A stretch of DNA of 64,000 nucleotides from a virus. Positions 5,834-64,000 of this stretch are shown here, in pieces. The notes below the pieces were generated by a model. The model searched no databases and was not told the DNA's origin. It saw only the letters and a list, made by a program, of their open reading frames with translations. The stretch lies in IMG/VR virus record IMGVR_UViG_3300033049_000020, positions 32,001-96,000 of that record. One strand, 5' to 3'. Made by a program: the position numbers and the translations under genes. Within the stretch, counting starts at the first letter, position 1. Every line of letters starts with the position of its first letter.

Positions 5834-7288
5834 ATGAATACATTAGTTAACGCAATTAGAACAAACGACAAGACTACAGAGAATGGAATGGCAACAAACT
5901 CCACGACTCTTAGTATGTGCGTAGACCTATTCTCAAGAGTAGGTGCAATGAGAACACAAACTCCTCAAGAAGTTATTAATCTTTTCGTAAAGGCATTTGA
6001 TGAAGATGCTTTGACTGCTATGAAAATTCTTTTTTGGGCAAGAGACGTTAGAGGTGGAGCTGGCGAGAGAAGAATATCACGAGATATATTTAAGTATTTA
6101 GCTGAAAACAGAGCAACAGTTCTGGCTAAGAACCTACACTTGATTCCAGAGTTCGGAAGATGGGATGACACTATGGTGTTGTTCGGTACTCCATTGGAAG
6201 ATGCTACAATCGAAATGATTGTAAAGGCATTGAATAACAAAGAAGGTCTTTGCGCTAAGTGGATGCCACGTCCAAATGTAAAGGACGCAACTAAAAAAAG
6301 AGTTGTTAAGGCACTGAGGGATAAATTGAATTTGTCTCCAAAAGAGTACCGTAAGATGTTGGTTGAATTGACTAACGTAGTGGAAACTGCGATGTGTTCA
6401 GGAGACTGGTCATCTATCGAGTACGGGAAGATTCCATCAAAGGCAATGTCTGACTACATGAAGACGTTTGGTAAGCACGATACCGATAGGTTCGTTGCAT
6501 ACTTAGCATCTGTAGAAAAGGGTGAAGCTAAAATCAATGCTGGCGCTGTATATCCATACAACGTTGTAAATTCATTGAAGCAAGGCAACACTCAAGGGGC
6601 AAATGCTCAATGGAATGCACTTCCTAACTACTTGGAAGGTAACGCTGAAAGGTTGTTACCAGTGGTAGACGTATCGGGTTCAATGGGTTGTTTAGCTAGT
6701 GGTTCAGGGTCAGTAACATGCCTTGACGTAGCGATAAGCCTTGGACTATATGTTTCAGAAAGAAATGAAGGCGCATTTAAGGATGCATTTGTAACTTTCT
6801 CAAGCAATCCTGACCTTCAATTCCTTAAGGGGAGTTTAAGTGATAGGTACAATCAATTGTCACGTAGTCAATGGAATATGAGTACTAATATTGAAAAGGT
6901 GTTCAAACTTATCCTTGATAAGGGTATTGCTGGTAATGTTCCACAAGAACAAATGCCTACCATGATTACAATATTTAGTGACATGCAGTTTAATGCGGCA
7001 ACAAGTTCGGGTTGGGGAAACTCAGGCTCAGACTGGAACCCTACTGCGCAAAGCATGATAGAAACTATGTATGAAAATGCAGGTTATGAAGTGCCTAAGT
7101 TGGTTTACTGGAACCTACACGCTAGAAATGGTGATAGTCCAGTACAATTCGACAAGCAGGGAACTGCACTGGTAAGTGGATTTAACGTTAATCTCCTAAC
7201 AAATCTATTAGCTGGTAAGGATTTGTCTCCGTACAGTATGATGATGAGCACACTTAGTAACGATAGATATGCATCTATAGCAGTATAA
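5834..7288 (+). CDS. DUF2828-type protein: helical N-terminal domain plus vWA (Ro60/TROVE-related)
   Basis: WARDVRGGAGER, FGRWDD, AKWMPR; MIDAS VVDVSGSM; FSDMQF; YWNL; LVSGF. Confidence 0.8.
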   Translation: MNTLVNAIRTNDKTTENGMATNSTTLSMCVDLFSRVGAMRTQTPQEVINLFVKAFDEDALTAMKILFWARDVRGGAGERRISRDIFKYLAENRATVLAKNLHLIPEFGRWDDTMVLFGTPLEDATIEMIVKALNNKEGLCAKWMPRPNVKDATKKRVVKALRDKLNLSPKEYRKMLVELTNVVETAMCSGDWSSIEYGKIPSKAMSDYMKTFGKHDTDRFVAYLASVEKGEAKINAGAVYPYNVVNSLKQGNTQGANAQWNALPNYLEGNAERLLPVVDVSGSMGCLASGSGSVTCLDVAISLGLYVSERNEGAFKDAFVTFSSNPDLQFLKGSLSDRYNQLSRSQWNMSTNIEKVFKLILDKGIAGNVPQEQMPTMITIFSDMQFNAATSSGWGNSGSDWNPTAQSMIETMYENAGYEVPKLVYWNLHARNGDSPVQFDKQGTALVSGFNVNLLTNLLAGKDLSPYSMMMSTLSNDRYASIAV

Positions 7289-16043: not shown

Positions 16044-16154
16044 TTATCAATCACTTAGTAATTATTTTCAAAAAACTTTACAATAATACTTGACAAATCC
16101 AAATAAATATAGTATCTTTGTATCATAATTAACCGAAAGGTTCTTTGAAATTTT

Positions 16155-16533
16155 GGCCTTGTAGCTCAGAGAAGACGGATTTATAAGTACTTCGGTACCT
16201 TTATCTTAAAGAGCACTGTCTAGACAGATGTCGCAGGTTGAATCCCTGCCGAGGCCACATATGGGGATGAAGTAAGTACACCTAGTGTAAACTGCTTTTG
16301 GAAGCTCACCCTTCCCATCCCCACCAATTGGGGACGAAGCATTGGGGTTAAAGCCAAACGCTTACTTGGTAGTGAAAATCTACCCGTCCCCACTAATATG
16401 CGTGGATAGCATAATCAGAAAGGACACTGATAATATTGTCGTTGAATTACATTCTTGGTCGACAATCGCTAATTATACCTTTCTAGTGCAACTGCTTAGG
16501 TAGTTTGTTGAGGTGGAAACCCTCATCCATGCA
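16155..16533 (+). ncRNA. Four tandem tRNA-like RNAs lacking a normal anticodon loop (16155-16257, 16263-16326, 16330-16395, 16400-16533)
   Basis: Each has a 7-bp acceptor stem and a T-arm-like hairpin; preceded by promoter and boxA-like GTTCTTTGAAA. Confidence 0.7.
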
Positions 16534-16541
16534 CTTTTTAA

Positions 16542-16737
16542 AAGTTAGGTTCAGCAACCAAATCCAACTATGGAAGTCTGTTTCATGCGTTAACTAACTA
16601 ACTTGTAAAATATTAAAAGTAGATTTCAGCAACCCAAATCTTTCAGATAAGAAAAACCATCTACTTGAACTTTTAAAGGAAGCTTACAGCAACTTACAAA
16701 TCTAAAATCAATTTTAACGGAAAAAGATGCCTTCCTG
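16542..16737 (+). ncRNA. Three tandem CAGCAA hairpin RNAs (16542-16605, 16617-16667, 16677-16737)
   Basis: Closing stems AAGTTAG/CTAACTT, AAGTAGA/TCTACTT, AGGAAG/CTTCCT, each followed by T(T/A)CAGCAA. Confidence 0.7.
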
Positions 16738-16744
16738 ATGCACT

Positions 16745-16774
16745 AAACCCTTAGCTAACCGCTAAGGGTTTTTT
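16745..16774 (+). terminator. Intrinsic terminator of the small-RNA operon
   Basis: AAACCCTTAGC-TAACC-GCTAAGGGTTT-TTT. Confidence 0.85.
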
Positions 16775-17469: not shown

Positions 17470-17928
17470 ATGAAGTTAGGAGAAGCATTTGATGAGATAA
17501 CTAACGAGCCACATATCGAAGTAGAGGATACGGAGGATGGGTTTGACGTAACGGTATATGTGGGTGGCATAAAAGCTGGTAAATTAGTGGCACAATACAT
17601 TACTGGTGGCTATTGGGGATTCGAGGATGAATTCAGTGAGGAGGAGTATGATGTAATGTTCCCAGACGATAGTTTCTTCAAGATTGAGTATGTATCTGTA
17701 GATGACGGATACAAGGGTGATGGGTTAGGTAAACTTATGATGAGTAAAGCGATTGCACTGATTAAGAATAATGGGATAGATACCGTATATTTGAATGCCT
17801 CTCCCATGGGCTTTACTGGTTTAGATATATCCGATTTAGTAGGGTTCTACAAGAAATTCGGATTTAAGGTTATACAAAAAACAGGTGATAAGTATCACGA
17901 GAATAAAGAAATGATATTGAAATTATGA
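17470..17928 (+). CDS. GNAT acetyltransferase (likely start 17470)
   Basis: VDDGYKGDGLGK; FYKKFGF. Confidence 0.85.
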   Translation: MKLGEAFDEITNEPHIEVEDTEDGFDVTVYVGGIKAGKLVAQYITGGYWGFEDEFSEEEYDVMFPDDSFFKIEYVSVDDGYKGDGLGKLMMSKAIALIKNNGIDTVYLNASPMGFTGLDISDLVGFYKKFGFKVIQKTGDKYHENKEMILKL

Positions 17929-18368
17929 GTGTAAGAGAAAATTTGCGAGGAAGACTACTAATCGAATCTGAGGAGAAGCGTATTCCTATGAATATTGAAA
18001 TCCCAGATGATATACGTAAGATTGAACAAGTGTTCAAGTCTAACGGTAAGAAGTTGTTCGTAGTGGGTGGCTCAATTAGAGACGCTATATTGGGTAAAGA
18101 ACCTAAAGATTGGGATTTGGCAACTGACGCGGTGCCAGATGATGTGATACGAATGCTTAAAATGCAATCGTTCGTCACTAACGTTATTGAGACTGGTAAA
18201 GCGTTCGGAGTCATTAATGCTTTGACAGTTAATGACGAATACGAAATTGCCACATTCAGAAAGGATATTTTTCATAATGAGAAGAAGGATTTAGATTCAT
18301 TTTTAATATATCTAAAAGGTACAGATATTGCTAAGTATGAATTGTTTAAAGAAGGGCTAATGAAATAG
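17925..18368 (+). CDS. CCA-adding/poly(A) polymerase family, N-terminal part
   Basis: VVGGSIRD, KDWDLAT, GKAFG, EIATFRKD. Confidence 0.9.
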   Translation: MSVRENLRGRLLIESEEKRIPMNIEIPDDIRKIEQVFKSNGKKLFVVGGSIRDAILGKEPKDWDLATDAVPDDVIRMLKMQSFVTNVIETGKAFGVINALTVNDEYEIATFRKDIFHNEKKDLDSFLIYLKGTDIAKYELFKEGLMK

Positions 18369-18386: not shown

Positions 18387-19085
18387 ATGATATTTATAAT
18401 AAAGAATATCATGGTAAAAGGTTACATATATAAATTGATTTGTCCGATAAGTGGTGAATGTAGATATGTTGGTAAGACTGTTCAGAGATTAAATAAACGA
18501 CTTAACAAACATAAGTATGATAAGAGAAAGAATCCGAGCCATAAGAATAGTTGGTTAATTCAATTAGAGGATAAAGGGTTATTAGGTGATATAAAAATTG
18601 AAATAATAGAGGAATGTGATACTTCGGTATTAAATGATAGGGAAATATTTTGGATTGCTAAATTAACTAGTAGTGGTTATAAGTTAACCAATATGACGGA
18701 AGGTGGTGATGTTGGTTCGTTAGGTTATAAACACACTGACGAAGCCATACGTAAAATTTCTGAGGCTGGAAAAAAACGTAAGGGGTTTAAACATACTGAT
18801 GAAGCTAAGAAAAACATTAGTAAATCTCTTATTGGTAATGATAGGCATAAAGGGTGTAACCATTCGGAAGAAACGAAGAAACAAATATCCGAAAGTAAGA
18901 AAGGTACTGTTAGTTGGAATGCACAAACAGTTTTACAATTGGATAAGGAAAGTAACATAATAAGTGAGTGGAGAAGTGCTAAGTATGCTGCCGAACAACT
19001 TGGTTTAAGTCAGGGTAATATTTGGTCGGTAATAAACGGTGACCGAAACACTTGTGGTGGGTTTAAATGGAAAAAAAATGGATGA
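18387..19085 (+). CDS. GIY-YIG homing endonuclease (NUMOD3/NUMOD1) interrupting the CCA-adding enzyme gene
   Basis: GYIY..YVGKT; HTDE/HSEETK repeats; GFKW. Confidence 0.85.
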   Translation: MIFIIKNIMVKGYIYKLICPISGECRYVGKTVQRLNKRLNKHKYDKRKNPSHKNSWLIQLEDKGLLGDIKIEIIEECDTSVLNDREIFWIAKLTSSGYKLTNMTEGGDVGSLGYKHTDEAIRKISEAGKKRKGFKHTDEAKKNISKSLIGNDRHKGCNHSEETKKQISESKKGTVSWNAQTVLQLDKESNIISEWRSAKYAAEQLGLSQGNIWSVINGDRNTCGGFKWKKNG

Positions 19086-24051: not shown

Positions 24052-24141
24052 ATGATGAGTATACATATTAGTTCGATTAATTGGAGACGCAATGTCACCA
24101 TGGTCAGCAATTGCTTAGATTTCACCAAAACAGGAATATAA
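24052..24141 (+). CDS. Leader peptide of tRNA array 1: MMSIHISSINWRRNVTMVSNCLDFTKTGI
   Basis: Lies between promoter (23960-23991) and terminator; codons match the downstream tRNA isotypes. Confidence 0.75.
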   Translation: MMSIHISSINWRRNVTMVSNCLDFTKTGI

Positions 24142-24161
24142 AGCAATATCTCGAAAGAGTT

Positions 24162-24196
24162 AAGCCCTGACCAGTTAAACGGTCAGGGCTTTTTTA
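24162..24196 (+). terminator. Attenuator terminator 1
   Basis: AAGCCCTGACC...GGTCAGGGCTT-TTTT; competing TGGTCAG at 24101-24107. Confidence 0.85.
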
Positions 24197-24202
24197 TTAT
24201 AT

Positions 24203-31189: not shown

Positions 31190-32380
31190 ATGAAAATCAA
31201 AATCAATGAGGTAAAACAAACCCCACCTAATATGGATTTCGGTCTATGTGTGTACGGGAAGCCTAATGAAGAAGTCACTGAATGGTGTGAACATTGGGGA
31301 TTGGCAACGGAGGAATCTGGAGCTTATACCAACATCATATTGAATGATGACTCTATCTTAGAACATATGTTTGAAGGTCATACGGTGTATAAGTATATGG
31401 ATGGGTTTAGTCCTAATCTTAATAAGCACTTACACGTTGGCCACCTATCCAACTTAGTTTTTGCTTCAGCATTCAGTAATATGGGAGTAACAGCAAAGAC
31501 TATCACTATTTTAGGTGATACGTTAGAGGGTGAAGTCGCTCATAAGGATGCGCTAGAAGAATTTGTAATTATATGTAACCAGTTCAATTATTACGTTGAT
31601 GATTATCATTATGCTTCTATGGTTGAATGCGACCATGAGTTGCTTGTAGCTGGTGAAGACGATTACGAAGGTACTTTAGTATTCGATTTGGGAGAAGAGA
31701 AGATTGTCGGGCTTAAATCGGACGGTAATACAACATACTTCTATCAAGATGTGGCTTTAGCCACACAATTAAATGACGATACATTATACTTGACTGGTGC
31801 AGAACAAGAAAACCACTTTACCCTATTGAAAACGATTGCACCTAAAGTAAACCACTTACCATTAGGTTTAGTGATGGTAGGTAATAATAAACTTAGTAGT
31901 CGAAACGGTAATGCAATGTTAGCTTCCGAATTGATTGCAGAGCTGATGGAAAAGTTAGATAATAACATCGAATTGGTGGTAAACATTATCAAAGGTCAGT
32001 TTTTGAAGTCAAAACCTAACTCAACTAAGAATATCTGGATTAAGGATATGTTAGAACCTAAAACATCCTCTGGATTGTATCTTAGCTACACAATGGCTCG
32101 TTTACTATCTGCTGGGTTGGCACTCCCAACGTATGAAGATATATTAGCTGATTCCTTCATCAGTAAGGAGATTCAATTCGCCTACATTAAGGCAAAGATT
32201 AATATGATGCCTAATACGCTATTAGAAGCGTTGGTAGAGCACTGTAAGATGATTAACACGTTATACATCGACCATCATATTAAGGACAATCCTGAGAATC
32301 AGAAGATGTTCCAGCCAATGTTGGAAGATTTATCTTACGGAATGTTGTGCTTAGGTATGTACGAAGTAACTAAAGTATAA
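31190..32380 (+). CDS. argS: Short arginyl-tRNA synthetase-like protein
   Basis: SPNLNKHLHVGHL, KSDG.TTY..QD, EQ..HF, KLSSRNG, YLSYTMARL. Confidence 0.8.
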   Translation: MKIKINEVKQTPPNMDFGLCVYGKPNEEVTEWCEHWGLATEESGAYTNIILNDDSILEHMFEGHTVYKYMDGFSPNLNKHLHVGHLSNLVFASAFSNMGVTAKTITILGDTLEGEVAHKDALEEFVIICNQFNYYVDDYHYASMVECDHELLVAGEDDYEGTLVFDLGEEKIVGLKSDGNTTYFYQDVALATQLNDDTLYLTGAEQENHFTLLKTIAPKVNHLPLGLVMVGNNKLSSRNGNAMLASELIAELMEKLDNNIELVVNIIKGQFLKSKPNSTKNIWIKDMLEPKTSSGLYLSYTMARLLSAGLALPTYEDILADSFISKEIQFAYIKAKINMMPNTLLEALVEHCKMINTLYIDHHIKDNPENQKMFQPMLEDLSYGMLCLGMYEVTKV

Positions 32381-48577: not shown

Positions 48578-48673
48578 ATGTTTACAACAATTACAATATT
48601 AGTCTTATGTTTACTGAGCAGCGTGGTGCTGTTGAGGCAAGAGAGCTATGATGTAATCTATTGTAAAGCATAA
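48578..48673 (+). CDS. Leader peptide of tRNA array 2: MFTTITILVLCLLSSVVLLRQESYDVIYCKA
   Basis: Promoter, Leu/Val/Cys-rich uORF, terminator. Confidence 0.75.
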   Translation: MFTTITILVLCLLSSVVLLRQESYDVIYCKA

Positions 48674-48698
48674 AGAACTACAATACTTAATACATTAG

Positions 48699-48729
48699 AA
48701 GCTCTTACTCTCCAGTAAGGGCTTTTTTT
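48699..48729 (+). terminator. Attenuator terminator 2
   Basis: AAGCTCTTACT-CTCC-AGTAAGGGCTT-TTTTT. Confidence 0.85.
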
Positions 48730-48755
48730 ATGTCCAGTTCTTTGAAATAAAATAT

Positions 48756-57586: not shown

Positions 57587-58923
57587 GATGGACTTAGAAA
57601 AACAATGGAACGACTTACGTAACGATGGTAAATTATTATCATATATTGAGGATAAGTTTGACCACTATAAAGAACTTGGCTATCAAGTAAGTGCCTTCAT
57701 AAGCTCTTCTTATATTAGTATTGGAGATGAGAGTATCACAGGCAACAAATCCATGTACCACGAATTAAAGAGTATTCATGATATGGATGCGTACTTAAAA
57801 GATAAAGAGGAAAGTCAACCATGAACAAACTACACGCAAGAAAAATAAGTGAAACCATACCTGATGTTGCAATATTCAACATGCTGGAACGTGCTAAGAC
57901 TGAGGTAAAGGATTGGTCGGTTCCATGTAAGGTGAATGGTCAGATAAGTAGGGGACATTTCTGGAACATGTTCGCATGTCAACTTAAAGCTCCAGATTTT
58001 GAAATCGTGAGTAGTATGGTTAAGTATAGTCTTATATATGAGTTCGGTGACCTACTTCCAAAGGAGTACCAACCACCCAAAAAGAAAAAAGGTAAGGAGT
58101 TACCATTAAACTATATTCATTCAGAACCAAAATTTAACTAATGGAAACAGATGGAGATTACGATACTGGATGGGATGAATCAGAAGATACTGAACTAGAA
58201 GCATGGGATGTAGAAACGGATTCTGAAGACCCAGAATTTGAAACTGGTAAGGAACCAAATAAGGATATTGATTATTTATACATTCTTGGTGAGGCTTGGC
58301 CAGTATATCCGCAAGGTATCACCACTATTTTCGAAGATAAATATGAAAGACCTCATATTGTATCTAGAGAGCAATTTGATGCTATTCACACCAAATACTC
58401 TTGTATAGATATTGATGATGAGGTAACGGCTATCGATATAGTCAAAATTGGAAACACATCTTACGAATTTACCATTAAAGAACTTAATATCAGATGTCGC
58501 TCTAACTATCCTTGGGCATTCTTTGAGAACACTCCAGAGAATAGACCGAAAATCAATGAGTACTATAGACAGAAAAAGAATAGAGAAGAGTTGGCTGAAA
58601 TAGTTGAAGTATTAAGAAACGATATTGCACAACTATGAACGAAGAAGTTACCCACTTCAATTATTGTATAGCTAGACCATGGAAAAATAATCCAAATAGT
58701 CTATCCGCATACGCTTTAGGTACTCAATTATTTTATGGTACTATGGAGGAGGCTGAAGACACAAGAGCGAATATAAGTAAACGAGCTGGAAAAGAATATG
58801 AAATCTATAAGCTTGATAATCAACCACTTATGAGAAAACCTTAAAATATTTTACAAAAGACTTGTATTATCCAAATACTTTTCGTATCTTTGTACTATAT
58901 TTAATAGAAAGACATAAACAGTT

Positions 58924-58992
58924 ATGAGAAACTTTAACGACATATTCGAATTCAACTTTGCCGCATTTGCGGAGGAGGATGATTGCATCTAG
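58924..58992 (+). CDS. Leader peptide of tRNA array 3: MRNFNDIFEFNFAAFAEEDDCI
   Basis: Promoter, Phe/Ala/Glu/Asp-rich uORF, terminator. Confidence 0.8.
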   Translation: MRNFNDIFEFNFAAFAEEDDCI

Positions 58993-59034
58993 ATGCCAAA
59001 GGATATGTTGTAAACGAAACTCAATACGATATAC

Positions 59035-59068
59035 AAAACCTTTGGCTAACCAGTCAAAGGTTTTTTTT
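59035..59068 (+). terminator. Attenuator terminator 3
   Basis: AAAACCTTTGGCT-AACC-AGTCAAAGGTTTT-TTTT; competing GCCAAAGG at 58995-59002. Confidence 0.88.
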
Positions 59069-59185
59069 ATGCCTTAAAATTAAAATATGCGACCTAAGCT
59101 AACTTGGTAGAAGCACTGGCTTGAAACCCTTCTTTCTAATAGAAGTAAAACAATTAGAGTGAGTTCTTTGACATCTTGGTTAAAT

Positions 59186-59259
59186 GGGGTAGTGGTAGAG
59201 TTGGTCAATTGCGTTCGGTTGAAGCCCGAAAGATGTAGGTTCGATTCCTACCTGCCTCA
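59186..59259 (+). tRNA. tRNA-Phe(GAA), inside a split tRNA-Phe (halves 59089-59129 and 59741-59768)
   Basis: TTCGG-TT-GAA-GC-CCGAA. Confidence 0.85.
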
Positions 59260-59323
59260 CAAAAGTTTGAACTATTTTTACACTTTTCAGTCTTTGTTGA
59301 TATTTATATTAAACGATGATATT

Positions 59324-59740
59324 ATGGAAAAGAAAATTTGTACACGATGTGAAGATAGTAAAGAGTTAGACGACTTCAGTTGGAAGAGTAAAGTAAAAGG
59401 GACTAAACAGTCTAAGTGTAAAGTATGTATGCGTGAGTTGGATAAGATAAAATACGCTAATGATACTGAAAGGAGAAGAAGAATAAGGGAAACCGCAAAA
59501 CTGGCTTATATTAGGAATCGTGATTTTGTGCGGAGAGTAAAAAGGTTGGGTAGCTGCTCTGAATGTGTAGAAGATAGGTGGTATTGTTTAGACTTCCATC
59601 ATTGTGGAGATAAAGAGTTTGAACTTAGTGATATGGTACATTCTGGGTATTCCATTATTAAGATTAAAAAGGAAATTAGAAAATGTAAGCTTCTATGTGC
59701 TAATTGTCATAGAGAAGAACATTACCAGAATGGTTATTGA
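59324..59740 (+). CDS. HNH endonuclease
   Basis: LDFHH..EIRKCKLLCANCHRE. Confidence 0.88.
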   Translation: MEKKICTRCEDSKELDDFSWKSKVKGTKQSKCKVCMRELDKIKYANDTERRRRIRETAKLAYIRNRDFVRRVKRLGSCSECVEDRWYCLDFHHCGDKEFELSDMVHSGYSIIKIKKEIRKCKLLCANCHREEHYQNGY

Positions 59741-59776
59741 CGCGGTTCGAAACTGGTAGGTCGCACCAAAACATAC

Positions 59777-59849
59777 GTGACAGTAGCTCAGTTGGTAGAG
59801 CATCGCCCTGAAGAGGCGAGTGTCGGGGGTTCGAGACCCTCTTGTCACA
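59777..59849 (+). tRNA. tRNA-Phe(GAA)
   Basis: TCGCC-CT-GAA-GA-GGCGA. Confidence 0.9.
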
Positions 59850-60013
59850 CAGCTAATATTTTAGCCAGAAATAGCTAAAATAGAGGTAAATAGTTAATAT
59901 ATTAGCTATTGTTCTTTGACATCTTGGTTAAATGGTGCTGTATGCAAGCGGTTCAACGCAGCAATTTGACATTTTCTAAATGTTTAGTATATTTATATTA
60001 AAATAGATATATT

Positions 60014-60640
60014 ATGGTAAGAAAATGGAGAGAAAAGGAAATTGAGTTTTTAAAGCTTAATTATGGTGCTAATGGTTGTAAATACGTTTGTGAAAAATTA
60101 AATAGAGGTAGAGGTAGTGTACAGAAAAAGGCTAAAGTCTTCAACCTGAAAGTAGATAGGAAAAAAATTTATTATTCAGTGGAAGTTGTTAGTAGAATAG
60201 TCAGTGAAAGTATGTCGATGAAGGATGTGGTGTTGGCATTAGGTAAAAGTGTTAGTGGTAAACAATATAAGGTAATAAAAAAGTTTATAGATGATAATAG
60301 TATTGACGATACACATTTTAATCCTTACCACTTAAATAAAACTAATTTAAAAATTGGTAGAGTCACATATCCAATTGACCATTGGCTTAAGAACGGTTCT
60401 AATATTAGTAGTTCTAACTTAAAGGTTAAACTATATAAAGAAGGTCTGAAGAAGAGGGATTGCGAAATGTGTGGGCAAGGTGAAGAATGGTTAGGTAAAA
60501 AAATGAGTTTAATACTTGACCATATTAATGGGGTGAATGATGATAATAGGTTGGATAACTTAAGGATTGTTTGCCCTAATTGTAACGCTACCTTGGAAAC
60601 CCATTGTAGAGGTAGTAAGGGATTAAAACAACGTGCGTAA
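60014..60640 (+). CDS. HNH endonuclease
   Basis: CEMCG..LDHINGVNDDNRLDNLRIVCPNC. Confidence 0.9.
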   Translation: MVRKWREKEIEFLKLNYGANGCKYVCEKLNRGRGSVQKKAKVFNLKVDRKKIYYSVEVVSRIVSESMSMKDVVLALGKSVSGKQYKVIKKFIDDNSIDDTHFNPYHLNKTNLKIGRVTYPIDHWLKNGSNISSSNLKVKLYKEGLKKRDCEMCGQGEEWLGKKMSLILDHINGVNDDNRLDNLRIVCPNCNATLETHCRGSKGLKQRA

Positions 60641-60714
60641 TGCAATTGGGTGCGCAACTGGGCTTTCACCCCAGCTACATTGTTAGAGAGTGGGTTCGAT
60701 TCCCACACGCATGA
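60632..60714 (+). tRNA. tRNA-Glu(TTC), long variable arm, inside a split tRNA (halves 59934-59964 and 60720-60767)
   Basis: CTGGG-CT-TTC-AC-CCCAG. Confidence 0.8.
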
Positions 60715-60908
60715 CTATACAACCTTGTGTCTATATGACTTCGAGGGTTCGAATCCCTTCGGCACTACATTATTGGTGTTCCAAATTGACCTAAAATTGA
60801 GTGTTTTGGAACACCAATAACCAGCCAAAACTACCTGTTTTAGGGTACATTTGGCTGGTTATAGAACGCGGAATGTACTTAAATGTGGTAGATTCCGAGA
60901 AATATCAC

Positions 60909-60981
60909 CGCCCGTTGGTCTATCGGTTAGGACGTCTGGTTTTCAACCAGAAGGTGATGGGTTCAATTCCCATACGGGTGA
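60909..60981 (+). tRNA. tRNA-Glu(TTC)
   Basis: TCTGG-TT-TTC-AA-CCAGA. Confidence 0.88.
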
Positions 60982-61011
60982 CCTTGACAATCTGGAAAGA
61001 CAGATAATTAT

Positions 61012-61088
61012 GGGGGATGGGACTGCTTTGGAGTGGTCACCTCACTTGCAATGAGGAAATCAGATGGGTTCGAATCCCATATCCTCCA
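61012..61088 (+). tRNA. tRNA-Ala(TGC)
   Basis: CCTCA-CT-TGC-AA-TGAGG; G3-U70. Confidence 0.85.
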
Positions 61089-61153: not shown

Positions 61154-61933
61154 ATGGCTAAGTGTAAGAATATTGAGTGTAAAAATAATACAGAAGGTAA
61201 ACGAGTTTATTGTTCGTTACAGTGTAGGAACTATTATGTTAACAAATATATTAGGGACTACAATAAAAATAGCAAGGGGCTTGCCAAAGACGCTAAGAAA
61301 GTTTATGAGGACAACCCTAAATATTGCTTAAACCCTAATTGCGGAGAGAAGATAACATATAAGAAAAGAAGGAACCAATATTGTAATAGCTCATGTCAGG
61401 CGTCTGTTACGGGTGTAGGTAGAATTGTTAGCGAAAGTACTAGGGAAAAGCATAGATTAAGTAGGTTAAAACAAATTGGTGATTACAAAAAGGTTGATTG
61501 TAAATGGTGTGGTTCAGAACTATTAGTTATGAATAGAAGACTATATTGTGATTCAGAATGTAGAAGAAAATATAATCGTAAGAATATGGATGAGTTCTTA
61601 ATCTACAAAGCTGACACAAAATTCGGTTTTAATTTGGGTGATTATCCTAAAGAATTTAATTTTGGGCTGATAGAGGAACACGGTTGGTACTCACCAACCA
61701 ATTCAAGAAAGCCTAATATTGGTGGTATAAGTAGAGACCACATGTTATCAGTTAGAGAAGGGTTTAATAGTGGGATAGACCCAAAATTATTGAGTCATCC
61801 AGCCAATTGTAAATTGATGATTCATGGTGATAATATTAGTAAGAATAAGAAATCTAGTATAACAGAAGAAGAATTAAAGGAAAGGATTAAAGAATGGAAT
61901 AAGAAATATGGGGCTATGGTGACAACTGGCTAA
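61154..61933 (+). CDS. Zinc-finger-rich HNH-like endonuclease
   Basis: YCS..C repeats; SRDH..HPANC. Confidence 0.7.
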   Translation: MAKCKNIECKNNTEGKRVYCSLQCRNYYVNKYIRDYNKNSKGLAKDAKKVYEDNPKYCLNPNCGEKITYKKRRNQYCNSSCQASVTGVGRIVSESTREKHRLSRLKQIGDYKKVDCKWCGSELLVMNRRLYCDSECRRKYNRKNMDEFLIYKADTKFGFNLGDYPKEFNFGLIEEHGWYSPTNSRKPNIGGISRDHMLSVREGFNSGIDPKLLSHPANCKLMIHGDNISKNKKSSITEEELKERIKEWNKKYGAMVTTG

Positions 61934-61983
61934 CACGTTGCTTTTGCAAGGCAGAGATGGGGTATCGTACACCCCTAGCTCCA
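61910..61983 (+). tRNA. tRNA-Ala(TGC), atypical T-loop
   Basis: GGGGCTA/TAGCTCC with G3-U70; TT-TGC-AA loop. Confidence 0.8.
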
Positions 61984-62297
61984 CTTATTAACTTAAAAAT
62001 GAAGTAAAATGAGACTTACAGAGAAAAGAGAAATGCTTATGAAATTGGGTGAGAACCTAATGAGTAAAGGTGGTAAGCTAACACTTAACTTCACCAACGG
62101 TAGTATGAGGTATACGGAGCTTATAGCTTCTGAACAGTATCACTATCAAAGTGACAAACGATATGTCGAAATATCGGCTATGGTTCATTTCAGTGAACCA
62201 AACGTCTACAGGGTAATACCTATAGGCACTAATACAATTAGTTTTGTACTGGAAACACTTCTGAGTAACTCCAAGTAACCGCTTGGCATCAGTAATT

Positions 62298-62369
62298 GGT
62301 CTTGAAGCACAATGGCTGTGCAACTCGTTGTCTGCGAGAAAGTTGCGAGTTCGAATCTCGTCAGGACCG
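62298..62369 (+). tRNA. tRNA-Asp(GTC)
   Basis: CTCG-TT-GTC-TG-CGAG; G73. Confidence 0.82.
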
Positions 62370-62398
62370 CCTTTGACAATCTGGAAAGACAGATAAAT

Positions 62399-62481
62399 GG
62401 ATATGGCGCATAACGGCTGGTGTACCTGACTGTCACTCAGGTGTGTGTAACACGTAGTGGGTTCGACTCCCATCATATCTG
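62399..62481 (+). tRNA. tRNA-Asp(GTC), long variable arm
   Basis: CCTGA-CT-GTC-AC-TCAGG; G73. Confidence 0.82.
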
Positions 62482-62517
62482 CCCTTGACTTTTTGGTACT
62501 TAGCCATATTTATATGT

Positions 62518-63159
62518 ATGAGGAAACCAAAAACGATACATTACCTTTACAAGACTACTTGTAAAGTAACAAATAGGTACTATGTAGGGATGCATAGTAC
62601 CAACGACTTAGAAGACGGTTATATGGGTTCTGGAAGAAGGTTACGAGCCTCAATCAGGAAACATGGTGAAGATAACCATACCAAAGAGATATTGGAGTTC
62701 TTTGATGATAGAGGACGACTGATAGAAGCAGAGAAGGAATCTATTACCTTAGACATGATTGATGATAAGGATTGTATGAATCTGATGGGAGGTGGAACAG
62801 GTGGTTTCATCAGCGAAGACCAACAGAGGCATCGTTCAACGATTGCAGTGGAGAAGAGAGAAAAGAAGAGAGAGGACGACCCAGAGTGGGATAAAGAGTA
62901 TAGACAAGCTCAATCCCTATCATTGATGAAGCAATATGAGAGTGGTAAGCGAGTATCCAAGCTCCCAAACTGGGAAGGTAGGAAACATTCAGAAATTACT
63001 AAAGAGAAGATGAGGGAGACTAAGAAGGGACAAGGCTCTGGCGAAACTAACTCTCAATACGGTACTTGTTGGATAACCAAAGATGGTTCCAACAAGAAGA
63101 TTAAGAAACAACTTCTTGATTCATTCCTTACTGAAGGATGGGTTAAAGGTAGAAAATAA
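62518..63159 (+). CDS. Seg-like GIY-YIG/NUMOD3 homing endonuclease
   Basis: Close paralog of 50569..51213. Confidence 0.85.
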   Translation: MRKPKTIHYLYKTTCKVTNRYYVGMHSTNDLEDGYMGSGRRLRASIRKHGEDNHTKEILEFFDDRGRLIEAEKESITLDMIDDKDCMNLMGGGTGGFISEDQQRHRSTIAVEKREKKREDDPEWDKEYRQAQSLSLMKQYESGKRVSKLPNWEGRKHSEITKEKMRETKKGQGSGETNSQYGTCWITKDGSNKKIKKQLLDSFLTEGWVKGRK

Positions 63160-63465
63160 TTTGGATAGGTCGAATATTTTACGTATCTTTTACGTATCTT
63201 TGTAGGATGAAAAGATTTAAGATAGGCGATACGTTCGTCAATAATGTAGACCATAGTAAGGTTAGTTCTAAAGGATATGACCATGCAGTTAACTACCTGC
63301 CATACACTTCAGAACCAGATGAAAGTTTGGAAACTATTGGTAAAACACAAACGGTTATAGATATTGAAGATGGTGATACTATAATCACTGATTTTGTTTT
63401 ATCATCTGGAGAAACGTACTGGTTTGAAAAGGATTCCTCATACGCAGAAAGTTGTAAAAAAATAC

Positions 63466-63576
63466 GAATGTAAGAGCAAGCTGTCGTGAGACGCTGTATT
63501 GGGTTCATTACCCGATAAGTCTACGGTTAAAGGTGGTACCATTGTTAACTTATAGGTGCAATTCCTATTACATTCG
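63466..63576 (+). ncRNA. Expanded tRNA-like RNA
   Basis: GAATGTA/TACATTC; ATAGG-TGCAATT-CCTAT T-like arm. Confidence 0.5.
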
Positions 63577-63579
63577 CTA

Positions 63580-63667: not shown

Positions 63668-63739
63668 CGTCCTATGGTGTAACGGCTAACATGCTACCCT
63701 GTCACGGTGGCGCTAGGGGTTCGATTCCCCTTGGGACGG
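63668..63739 (+). tRNA. tRNA-Asp(GTC)
   Basis: CTACC-CT-GTC-AC-GGTGG; G73. Confidence 0.88.
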
Positions 63740-64000
63740 CTCTGGAACTTTTGTACCTTAGCTATATGAGGAAACAAAATGATGGTGTTTCAAGTAGAAA
63801 ATAATTTGTAAATGTCAAATAAATTTTGTATCTTTGTATTATGAGTAGATATGAAGTAAGGGTAATATGGTACGAGGGTGCCACTCAAACTGAAATAATC
63901 ACAGGTAACCTAACCATGGGTAATAATTATTATCAGATAGTTGACGAAGATTTTAAGGACTGGTTCTTCCCAATGGGAAGAACCGTAATTCAAGAACTAT

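Follow-up and report, generated by a model that had tools for sequence, protein, structure and literature searches.

The window analysed here, a stretch of 64,000 nucleotides, is part of a virus record of 152 kb (G000). It encodes a tmRNA, about 50 tRNAs, an ArgRS-like protein and many homing endonucleases, and it also codes for CCA-adding-type, PTH2, RNA-repair and Ro60/TROVE-like proteins. The ArgRS-like protein is short (396 amino acids, 31190-32380), is embedded in the first tRNA array and adjoins tRNA-Arg genes. It has 634 homologs, many of them on contigs of jumbo-phage size and often adjoining tRNA arrays. Proteins with 50-56% identity to it occur on contigs as large as 727 kb, two phage records of 635 kb among them, and for this reason the record probably represents part of a jumbo phage. 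Promoters of the Bacteroidota type precede most genes of the window by pattern match, and a Bacteroidota host is inferred from this promoter type alone. A gene-free stretch at 16140-16770 contains several structured, tRNA-like or repeated elements with a terminator at its end. This may be a Y-RNA-like cluster; the Ro60/TROVE-like protein is encoded in the same window at 5834-7288.

Four leader-terminator cassettes are present in the genome and their arrays together cover all 20 amino acids. The third cassette, studied here, lies on the plus strand. It is preceded by a match to a host-type promoter at 58861-58892 with a TTG-type -33 element, a 20-nt spacer and the -7 element TATCTTTG. The site fits the consensus of Bacteroidota sigma-A-like promoters and is almost identical to the one preceding leader 2. 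Downstream of it a short open reading frame starts with the ATG at 58924, so that the arrangement expected of an attenuator, a promoter followed by a short ORF, is met at the level of a pattern match. The ORF (58924-58992) has 22 codons and ends with a TAG at 58990-58992. The initial annotation had described it as a peptide of 22 residues with 5 Phe, 3 Ala, 3 Glu and 3 Asp, and this composition was confirmed. The 14 codons for these four amino acids form a sensing block from codon 4 to codon 20 and draw on 9 of the 10 codons that exist for them; the remaining seven are non-cognate.

The share of Phe, Glu, Ala and Asp in leader 3 is 14 of 21 codons compared to 0.236 in the proteome (p=3.5e-5). 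Among 1,060 short ORFs of the genome, leader 3 ranks first for this share, followed by an ORF with 0.43. The amino-acid set of array 4, on the other hand, does not occur in leader 3 (0 of 21 codons). The leader is enriched for codons matching the downstream array, as an attenuator would demand. After the TAG, six more codons (M-P-K-D-M-L) are present in frame and are followed by a TAA at 59011-59013, as had been noted before. This tail (58993-59013) belongs to the leader in orthologs that lack the TAG. The Shine-Dalgarno-like sequence GGAGGAGG at 58971-58978 was considered as a re-initiation signal for the ATG at 58993 and rejected, because it is 14 nt away from this ATG and is accounted for by the Glu codons.

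The array behind the cassette had been described as containing only Phe, Glu, Ala and Asp tRNAs. This holds for all recognisable tRNAs (two for Phe, two for Glu, two for Ala and three for Asp), but not for one unidentified tRNA-like fold at 63467-63577. The fold has an acceptor-like stem of 7-8 bp, a T-arm-like hairpin, an extra long arm and a CAT-centred loop; it gave no hit in Rfam and no homolog among the fetched loci. Four homing-endonuclease-like genes and two unknown ORFs are also found in the array. The genes listed below are on the plus strand. The array starts with the 5' half (59089-59129) of a split tRNA-Phe(GAA) gene; an insertion separates it from the 3' half at about 59725-59769. 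An HNH endonuclease gene (59324-59740; phrog_2255, 1.8e-28) lies inside the split gene, and tRNA-Phe(GAA) genes are found at 59186-59260 and 59777-59850. A tRNA-Glu(TTC) gene is interrupted in the same manner into a 5' half (59934-59963) and a 3' half (60720-60768), with an HNH endonuclease gene (60014-60640; PF01844) and a tRNA-Glu(TTC) with a long variable arm (60632-60715) in between. The identity of the split halves was taken from intact homologs in the loci L146 (Phe) and L145 and L147 (Glu). In both cases (59089-59769 and 59934-60768) the HNH cassette brings a divergent replacement tRNA with the same anticodon, which we read as putative intron-less homing with replacement. In the locus L150, the Phe insertion starts as it does here and the endonuclease is apparently absent. 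Half-genes of a similar kind are found in arrays 1 and 4.

Further downstream follow a tRNA-Glu(TTC) (60909-60983), a tRNA-Ala(TGC) whose anticodon and G3:U70 pair were read from the sequence (61012-61088), an HNH-like endonuclease gene (61154-61933; phrog_1271, 5e-11) and a second tRNA-Ala(TGC) with G3:U70 (61910-61984), which was found with relaxed ARAGORN and is 92% identical to the tRNA-Ala of an ortholog. Two tRNA-Asp(GTC) genes (62298-62371 and 62398-62484), a homing endonuclease gene (62518-63159; phrog_314, 7.9e-34) and a third tRNA-Asp(GTC) (63668-63740), with an internal promoter of the host type upstream of it at 63195, complete the array. Short spacer motifs at 60985-61008, 62374-62396 and 62260-62297 are repeated upstream of the Ala and Asp tRNAs. 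They are kept in L146, L147, L150 and L152 and are possible processing signals.

Promoter-like sites were found within the array at 59300, 59989, 61130, 62506 and 63195. A second source that escapes attenuation may thus exist for the distal tRNAs, and the reach of the attenuator is probably limited by these sites. In the related phage G009, promoter-like sites are located between the terminator and the tRNAs. Orthologs without endonucleases, such as L151, are compact. The motif ATATTTA(T/A) occurs before gene starts (58897, 59300, 59989, 61130 and 62506) and upstream of each endonuclease gene in the array. It is strongly strand-biased and enriched before plus-strand genes (31 of 59 versus 3 of 29). 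The motif is the reverse complement of the T4 late promoter and possibly a late promoter of the phage.

A search with the boxA consensus from PMC13753749 gave five boxA-like 12-mers in the window, where 0.05 were expected. The copies in the array are at 59163-59174 and 59911-59922, and the first of them is 99 nt past the terminator of leader 3. The motif is also found past the terminators of leaders 2 and 4. Together with 16140, 24997 and 48737 in the window and 104310 and 109837 in G000, these sites are located before tRNA or tRNA-like genes. Considering all cassettes of the family described below, 8 of 56 terminators were followed by the motif, and no upstream control window contained it. 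This pattern is suggestive of an rrn-type Nus antitermination of the non-coding arrays of the phage, and the boxA-like site may help the polymerase through the untranslated array.

The sister cassettes allowed a comparison within the genome. Cassette 1 (24052-24200, plus strand) has a leader of 29 codons and a terminator before an H/W/S/N/R/I/M array, and cassette 2 (48578-48730, plus strand) has a leader of 31 codons and a terminator before a C/V/L array. Cassette 4 is outside the window (109643-109800 of G000), and its leader and terminator precede a P/Q/Y/G/K/T array. When each of the four leaders was compared with each of the four arrays, enrichment was confined to the diagonal, with p values of 5e-3 to 3e-5 for the own set and of at least 0.6 off the diagonal. 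A small hairpin is found between the promoter and the leader start, and its position shifts among the cassettes; it is located before leader 4 in this genome (109605-109629 of G000) and before leader 3 in L144-L146 and L152.

The terminator is located between the leader and the tRNA genes, as required for an attenuator. This intrinsic terminator (59035-59068) consists of a core stem (59039-59047 paired to 59052-59060) and a U-tract (59061-59068), with a computed energy of -10.1 kcal/mol for the core and -15.2 kcal/mol with the freed inner hairpin. The sequence GCCAAAGG at 58995-59002, two bases past the TAG, had been proposed to complement the terminator arm, and it is indeed matched exactly by CCTTTGGC at 59039-59046, the 5' arm of the terminator. 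The resulting antiterminator (58995-59046; -16.7 kcal/mol) stacks on an inner helix formed by 59004-59012 and 59025-59033. Its duplex has a z value of -3.9 against dinucleotide shuffles and is better than that of all 55 other leaders. Antiterminator and terminator are mutually exclusive, a further attribute of attenuators that is supported by folding, shuffles, control terminators and covariation. Without a ribosome, segment 1 (58937-58947) is predicted to pair with 59001-59011 in a protector helix 1:2 of -23.6 kcal/mol including inner hairpins. The same helix is predicted in the orthologs L145-L147 and L151. Termination in the absence of translation, as expected from a protector helix, is thus met by prediction and is weaker in L148 and L151.

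The switch was computed by equilibrium folding with an assumed ribosome footprint reaching to +13 from the P site. At the decision point, the probability of the terminator was 0.98 without a ribosome. With the A site on codons 4-21 it was 0.08-0.73 with a median of 0.22, and with the A site at codon 22, the TAG or the TAA it returned to 0.98. The flip from read-through to termination occurs directly past the last Asp codon. Stalls at codons 11-13 and 17-18 led to only weak switching (0.5-0.73). The earlier proposal that a ribosome at the stop codon covers 58995-59002 is supported by this model. Good switching was computed for the orthologs L145, L147 and L151, and poor switching for L146 (0.82-0.98) and L148 (0.49-0.93). 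According to the model, the antiterminator must be kinetically trapped in the latter two if they are to switch. The behaviour that defines an attenuator, a stall freeing the antiterminator and arrival at the leader end blocking it, is therefore met in the equilibrium model and weak in L146 and L148. Every structural criterion of an attenuator that can be tested from sequence was met.

Related phages were reached via the ArgRS-like gene and their tRNA regions were fetched. Without regard to composition, a pipeline picked out 52 distinct leader-terminator cassettes before tRNA arrays. Their mean excess of cognate codons was 0.255, compared to 0.015+/-0.016 after permutation, and was not reached in any of 5000 permutations. 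The cassettes are related by descent and are not independent trials, and therefore the permutation counts cannot be read as probabilities. Including all 56 cassettes, the antiterminator was better than shuffles at p<=0.05 in 80% (mean z -2.8), whereas only 6% of 69 control terminators behind long ORFs reached this level (mean z -0.1). The -7 motif, by pattern only, is found upstream of 36 of the 56 leaders. In 45 of 47 cases, the antiterminator arm starts 0-17 nt past the sensing run; in leader 3 the distance is 12 nt.

The grouping of the amino acids varies among the genomes, down to units for Gln or Lys only, and the leaders still match. Such a match bears on the possibility that the cassette senses the general speed of translation or the ribosome load, where any slowing would lead to read-through and the codon match would be secondary. 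By its geometry, the cassette would react to a stall anywhere in codons 4-21, and the non-cognate codons in the ORF are compatible with such a sensor. However, the leader content tracks the array across many re-partitions, including the Gln-only and Lys-only units, and four separate sensors would be redundant. We regard a general sensor as very unlikely. Poly-Gln leaders occur in nested cassettes before three to five tRNA-Gln genes (L048:18925, L057:35904, L100:8929, L106:9525, L118:9386 and L127:6435), and a nested poly-Lys leader precedes tRNA-Lys genes at L131:2198. On the minus strand of L121 (G029), at 6193 in reversed coordinates, a leader of 39 codons precedes a single array of 22 tRNAs. 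This array covers most amino acids and is an undivided form of the system.

The phage G009 has the same four-way partition as the phage studied here, with an ortholog of leader 3 before a Phe/Glu/Asp/Ala array. A search pattern built from both leaders, in which several sensing residues are fixed by construction, found nine metagenome loci with six leader types. The terminator and the order of the tRNAs were not part of the pattern. All seven loci of sufficient length have a terminator followed by Phe and then by Glu tRNAs, and Ala and Asp tRNAs are present where the contig reaches. The arrays of the relatives are not always pure, with a CAT tRNA in L147 and odd Phe-like genes in L150 and L151. 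Among the orthologs, changes on both sides were observed in 5 of 9 antiterminator pairs and in 5 of 10 terminator pairs; this covariation rests on two divergent lineages only. In L147 and L150, the 3' arm of the terminator is altered and the shared 5' arm is not. The close orthologs have no insertion or deletion in the leader, and their changes at codons 15 and 17, which are outside the search pattern, are synonymous.

The ortholog pattern had no match in 185,579 prokaryotic genomes, and for the neighbouring proteins no relatives were found in viral contigs or among proteins. The only other contig with the locus, L008, is 100% identical. The leader was not aligned in a DNA comparison with 35 related records, and cultured phages had only tRNA or HNH pieces in common. 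A pattern derived from the peptide gave one match that was judged a chance hit, and a pattern of the promoter plus the start gave six loci, none with a tRNA array behind the match.

Could a leaky terminator that works constitutively, together with a mini-ORF present by chance, account for the locus? Short ORFs and 8-bp complements occur frequently in DNA rich in A+T. The composition statistics, the antiterminator compared with shuffles, the orthologs and the covariation all speak against it, and this explanation is hardly credible. A T-box-like element, in which uncharged tRNAs would pair directly with the leader codons and stabilise the antiterminator without translation, would also have codons that match the downstream anticodons and a terminator/antiterminator pair. 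However, the cassette has no match to a T-box or leader family in Rfam, the cognate codons are all in one frame between the ATG and the stop, the close orthologs keep this frame without an indel and changed codons 15 and 17 only synonymously, and the antiterminator arm is located one ribosome footprint past the sensing run. We consider such an element highly improbable. Translation of the leader is inferred, and only the kept frame and the two synonymous changes speak for it, indirectly. The initial proposal of a leader-peptide attenuator matched to its array is supported by the composition, the controls, the conservation among orthologs, the covariation and the footprint model.

The role of the TAG codon was analysed with the same orthologs. 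The in-frame TAG is absent from L144, L145, L147, L149 and L150, where codons 23-24 read K-E or L-E, and also from both distant orthologs. Four of the five close orthologs without the TAG end at the same TAA after 29 codons and one contig ends at codon 24; three of the four that reach the TAA keep the terminator. Since the TAG-less orthologs reach the same TAA, the six extra codons are, judged from these sequences, real leader sequence in the relatives, which makes the TAG a natural variant. The TAG is common to L146 and L152, a distinct lineage, which excludes an assembly error, and differs from the form in L144 and L149 by a one-base shift of a TCTAGA palindrome. With the TAG, the gap from the stop to the terminator is 44 nt compared to 20-37 nt in 55 other leaders, and reading through the TAG restores a gap of 23 nt. 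The antiterminator arm starts inside the ORF in 46 of 47 family members, and leader 3 is the sole one in which it starts after the stop. Because the distant orthologs and these 46 of 47 members have the arm inside the ORF and the 44-nt gap is the sole outlier, the TAG is probably a derived, lineage-specific variant. The predicted switch point is before codon 23 with or without it, and in the model the TAG is not needed for the switch.

It had been suggested that amber suppression could influence the switch. In a stronger form of this idea, the switch is the same and the TAG is a designed input, with RF1 versus two amber suppressor tRNAs setting the state. Two genes for tRNAs with a CUA anticodon are present in the genome (15335-15409 and 15414-15483), the TAG recurs in L146 and L152, and leader 3 with its TAG is the outlier of the family that read-through would bring back. 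In pheL, the basal expression depends on the release of the ribosome at the stop (PMC3082878). Against this input stand the five close and both distant orthologs without the TAG, its one-base distance from the L144/L149 form and the same predicted state for a ribosome at the TAG or the TAA. The suppressor genes lie outside the Phe/Glu/Ala/Asp array, no sign of TAG recoding was found in the genome, and 15% frameshifting past the stop of pheL left pheA expression unchanged (PMC3082878). Taken together, amber suppression as a regulatory input is unsupported, and a designed input is unlikely. Since both stops terminate, TAG is not recoded and the bypass in pheL is incidental, suppression can do no more than modify the basal leak; it may still have a small effect on basal read-through.

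Recoding of TAG across the genome was rejected, since tables 15 and 4 raise the coding cover to the same extent, table 11 leaves long genes intact, and the extensions after TAG codons resemble those behind other stops. The two suppressor tRNA genes have no leader cassette of their own, and TAG is used as a stop. At 17925-18368, an ORF of 147 amino acids ends with a TAG and its frame is open for 238 more codons into the gene at 18387-19085. This may be a suppression-dependent fusion or merely an in-frame neighbour.

We conclude that cassette 3 is very probably a multivalent ribosome-mediated transcription attenuator that senses decoding capacity; there are no experimental data. The sequences show the anatomy, the match in composition, the conservation and the covariation, and the switch itself is computed. 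The direction and size of the regulation are inferred, and coupling of transcription and translation in the host was assumed. The host RNA polymerase would start at the -33/-7 promoter and the host ribosome would translate the leader. With fast decoding, the ribosome at codons 22-23, or at the TAA, would cover 58995-59002, the antiterminator would be barred and transcription would terminate at 59061-59068. Without a ribosome, helix 1:2 would likewise give termination. The natural trigger is inferred to be a scarcity of charged tRNA for any of the four amino acids, caused by amino-acid shortage, limited charging or tRNA destruction during infection. The ribosome would then lag in codons 4-20 and break helix 1:2, leaving segment 2 free. 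The antiterminator would capture the 5' arm of the terminator before the 3' arm is made, and the polymerase would go on into the array, where it might load Nus factors at the boxA-like site. A larger supply of tRNA would lead to faster decoding, which would close a negative feedback loop.

Multivalent attenuators are known from enterobacteria, with the leader thrL for Thr and Ile and the ilvGMEDA leader for Ile, Leu and Val; further examples are trpL, hisL and leuL. Like these, the phage cassette has a promoter, a short ORF rich in regulatory codons, the helices 1:2, 2:3 and 3:4 and a U-tract; a stall is predicted to cause read-through and one leader would sense several amino acids. In contrast, the phage cassette controls tRNA genes rather than biosynthetic enzymes and is one of four that cover all 20 amino acids. 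The classical criterion that biosynthetic enzymes or synthetases are located downstream is not met, since tRNAs and homing endonucleases are found there. The cassette matches none of the Rfam leader families (Phe, Trp, His, Thr and Leu); the best hits in Rfam were generic terminator-containing models far below the gathering score.

The leader pheM controls the Phe-tRNA synthetase, a translation component, and pheM-pheST is nearest in its logic to the phage cassette. Both pheL-pheA (PMC3082878) and pheM-pheST share with it the sensing of Phe codons and a ribosome at the stop that blocks the antiterminator. They respond to a single amino acid and have a protein product, whereas the product here is tRNA and Glu, Ala and Asp would be sensed as well. 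T-box riboswitches sense tRNA charging by binding the uncharged tRNA directly, without translation. The phage cassette resembles them in that charging would be sensed and a terminator/antiterminator pair acted on. The Rfam search gave no match to a T-box, with its Stem I, specifier loop and antiterminator bulge, and the antiterminator here is a plain helix.

Phage tRNA arrays have been discussed as a counter-defence against the depletion of host tRNAs, and these arrays share with the present one a large set of tRNAs (PMC10264068; PMC7824862); here the CCA-adding-type, PTH2, RNA-repair and Ro60/TROVE-like proteins and the tmRNA of the window come in addition. In the searched passages of both papers, a feedback control of array transcription is not described, and the terms 'attenuat' and 'leader' are absent from PMC7824862. 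The literature search, which left subscription papers mostly uncovered, found no description of an attenuation of tRNA genes, whether in phages, in their tRNA arrays or in Bacteroidetes. The mechanism of attenuation is textbook knowledge for amino-acid genes, and for tRNA genes no described precedent was found. New in our analysis are the test with control terminators, the covariation among orthologs and the resolution of the TAG question.

The reason for which phages carry tRNAs has long been an open question, with codon compensation on one side and the replacement of depleted or cleaved host tRNAs on the other (PMC10264068). On balance, we lean towards the view that the jumbo phages of this clade audit the decoding of the host. 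A few multivalent attenuators would cover the 20 amino acids, each opening only the stalled block, as an inducible counter-defence against anticodon nucleases and tRNA depletion, and the leaders would be re-written when the arrays are re-shuffled. If this is true, the tRNA supply is driven by demand, with each block switched on only when its own codons stall, and the question becomes testable with a reporter of 150 nt that tells which stress opens which block. The leaders would provide an independent read-out of tRNA identity where the genes of an array are too odd for tRNA finders, and they could serve as compact multi-codon biosensors. Attenuation would thereby reach beyond enzyme genes, to genes for tRNAs and into viruses.
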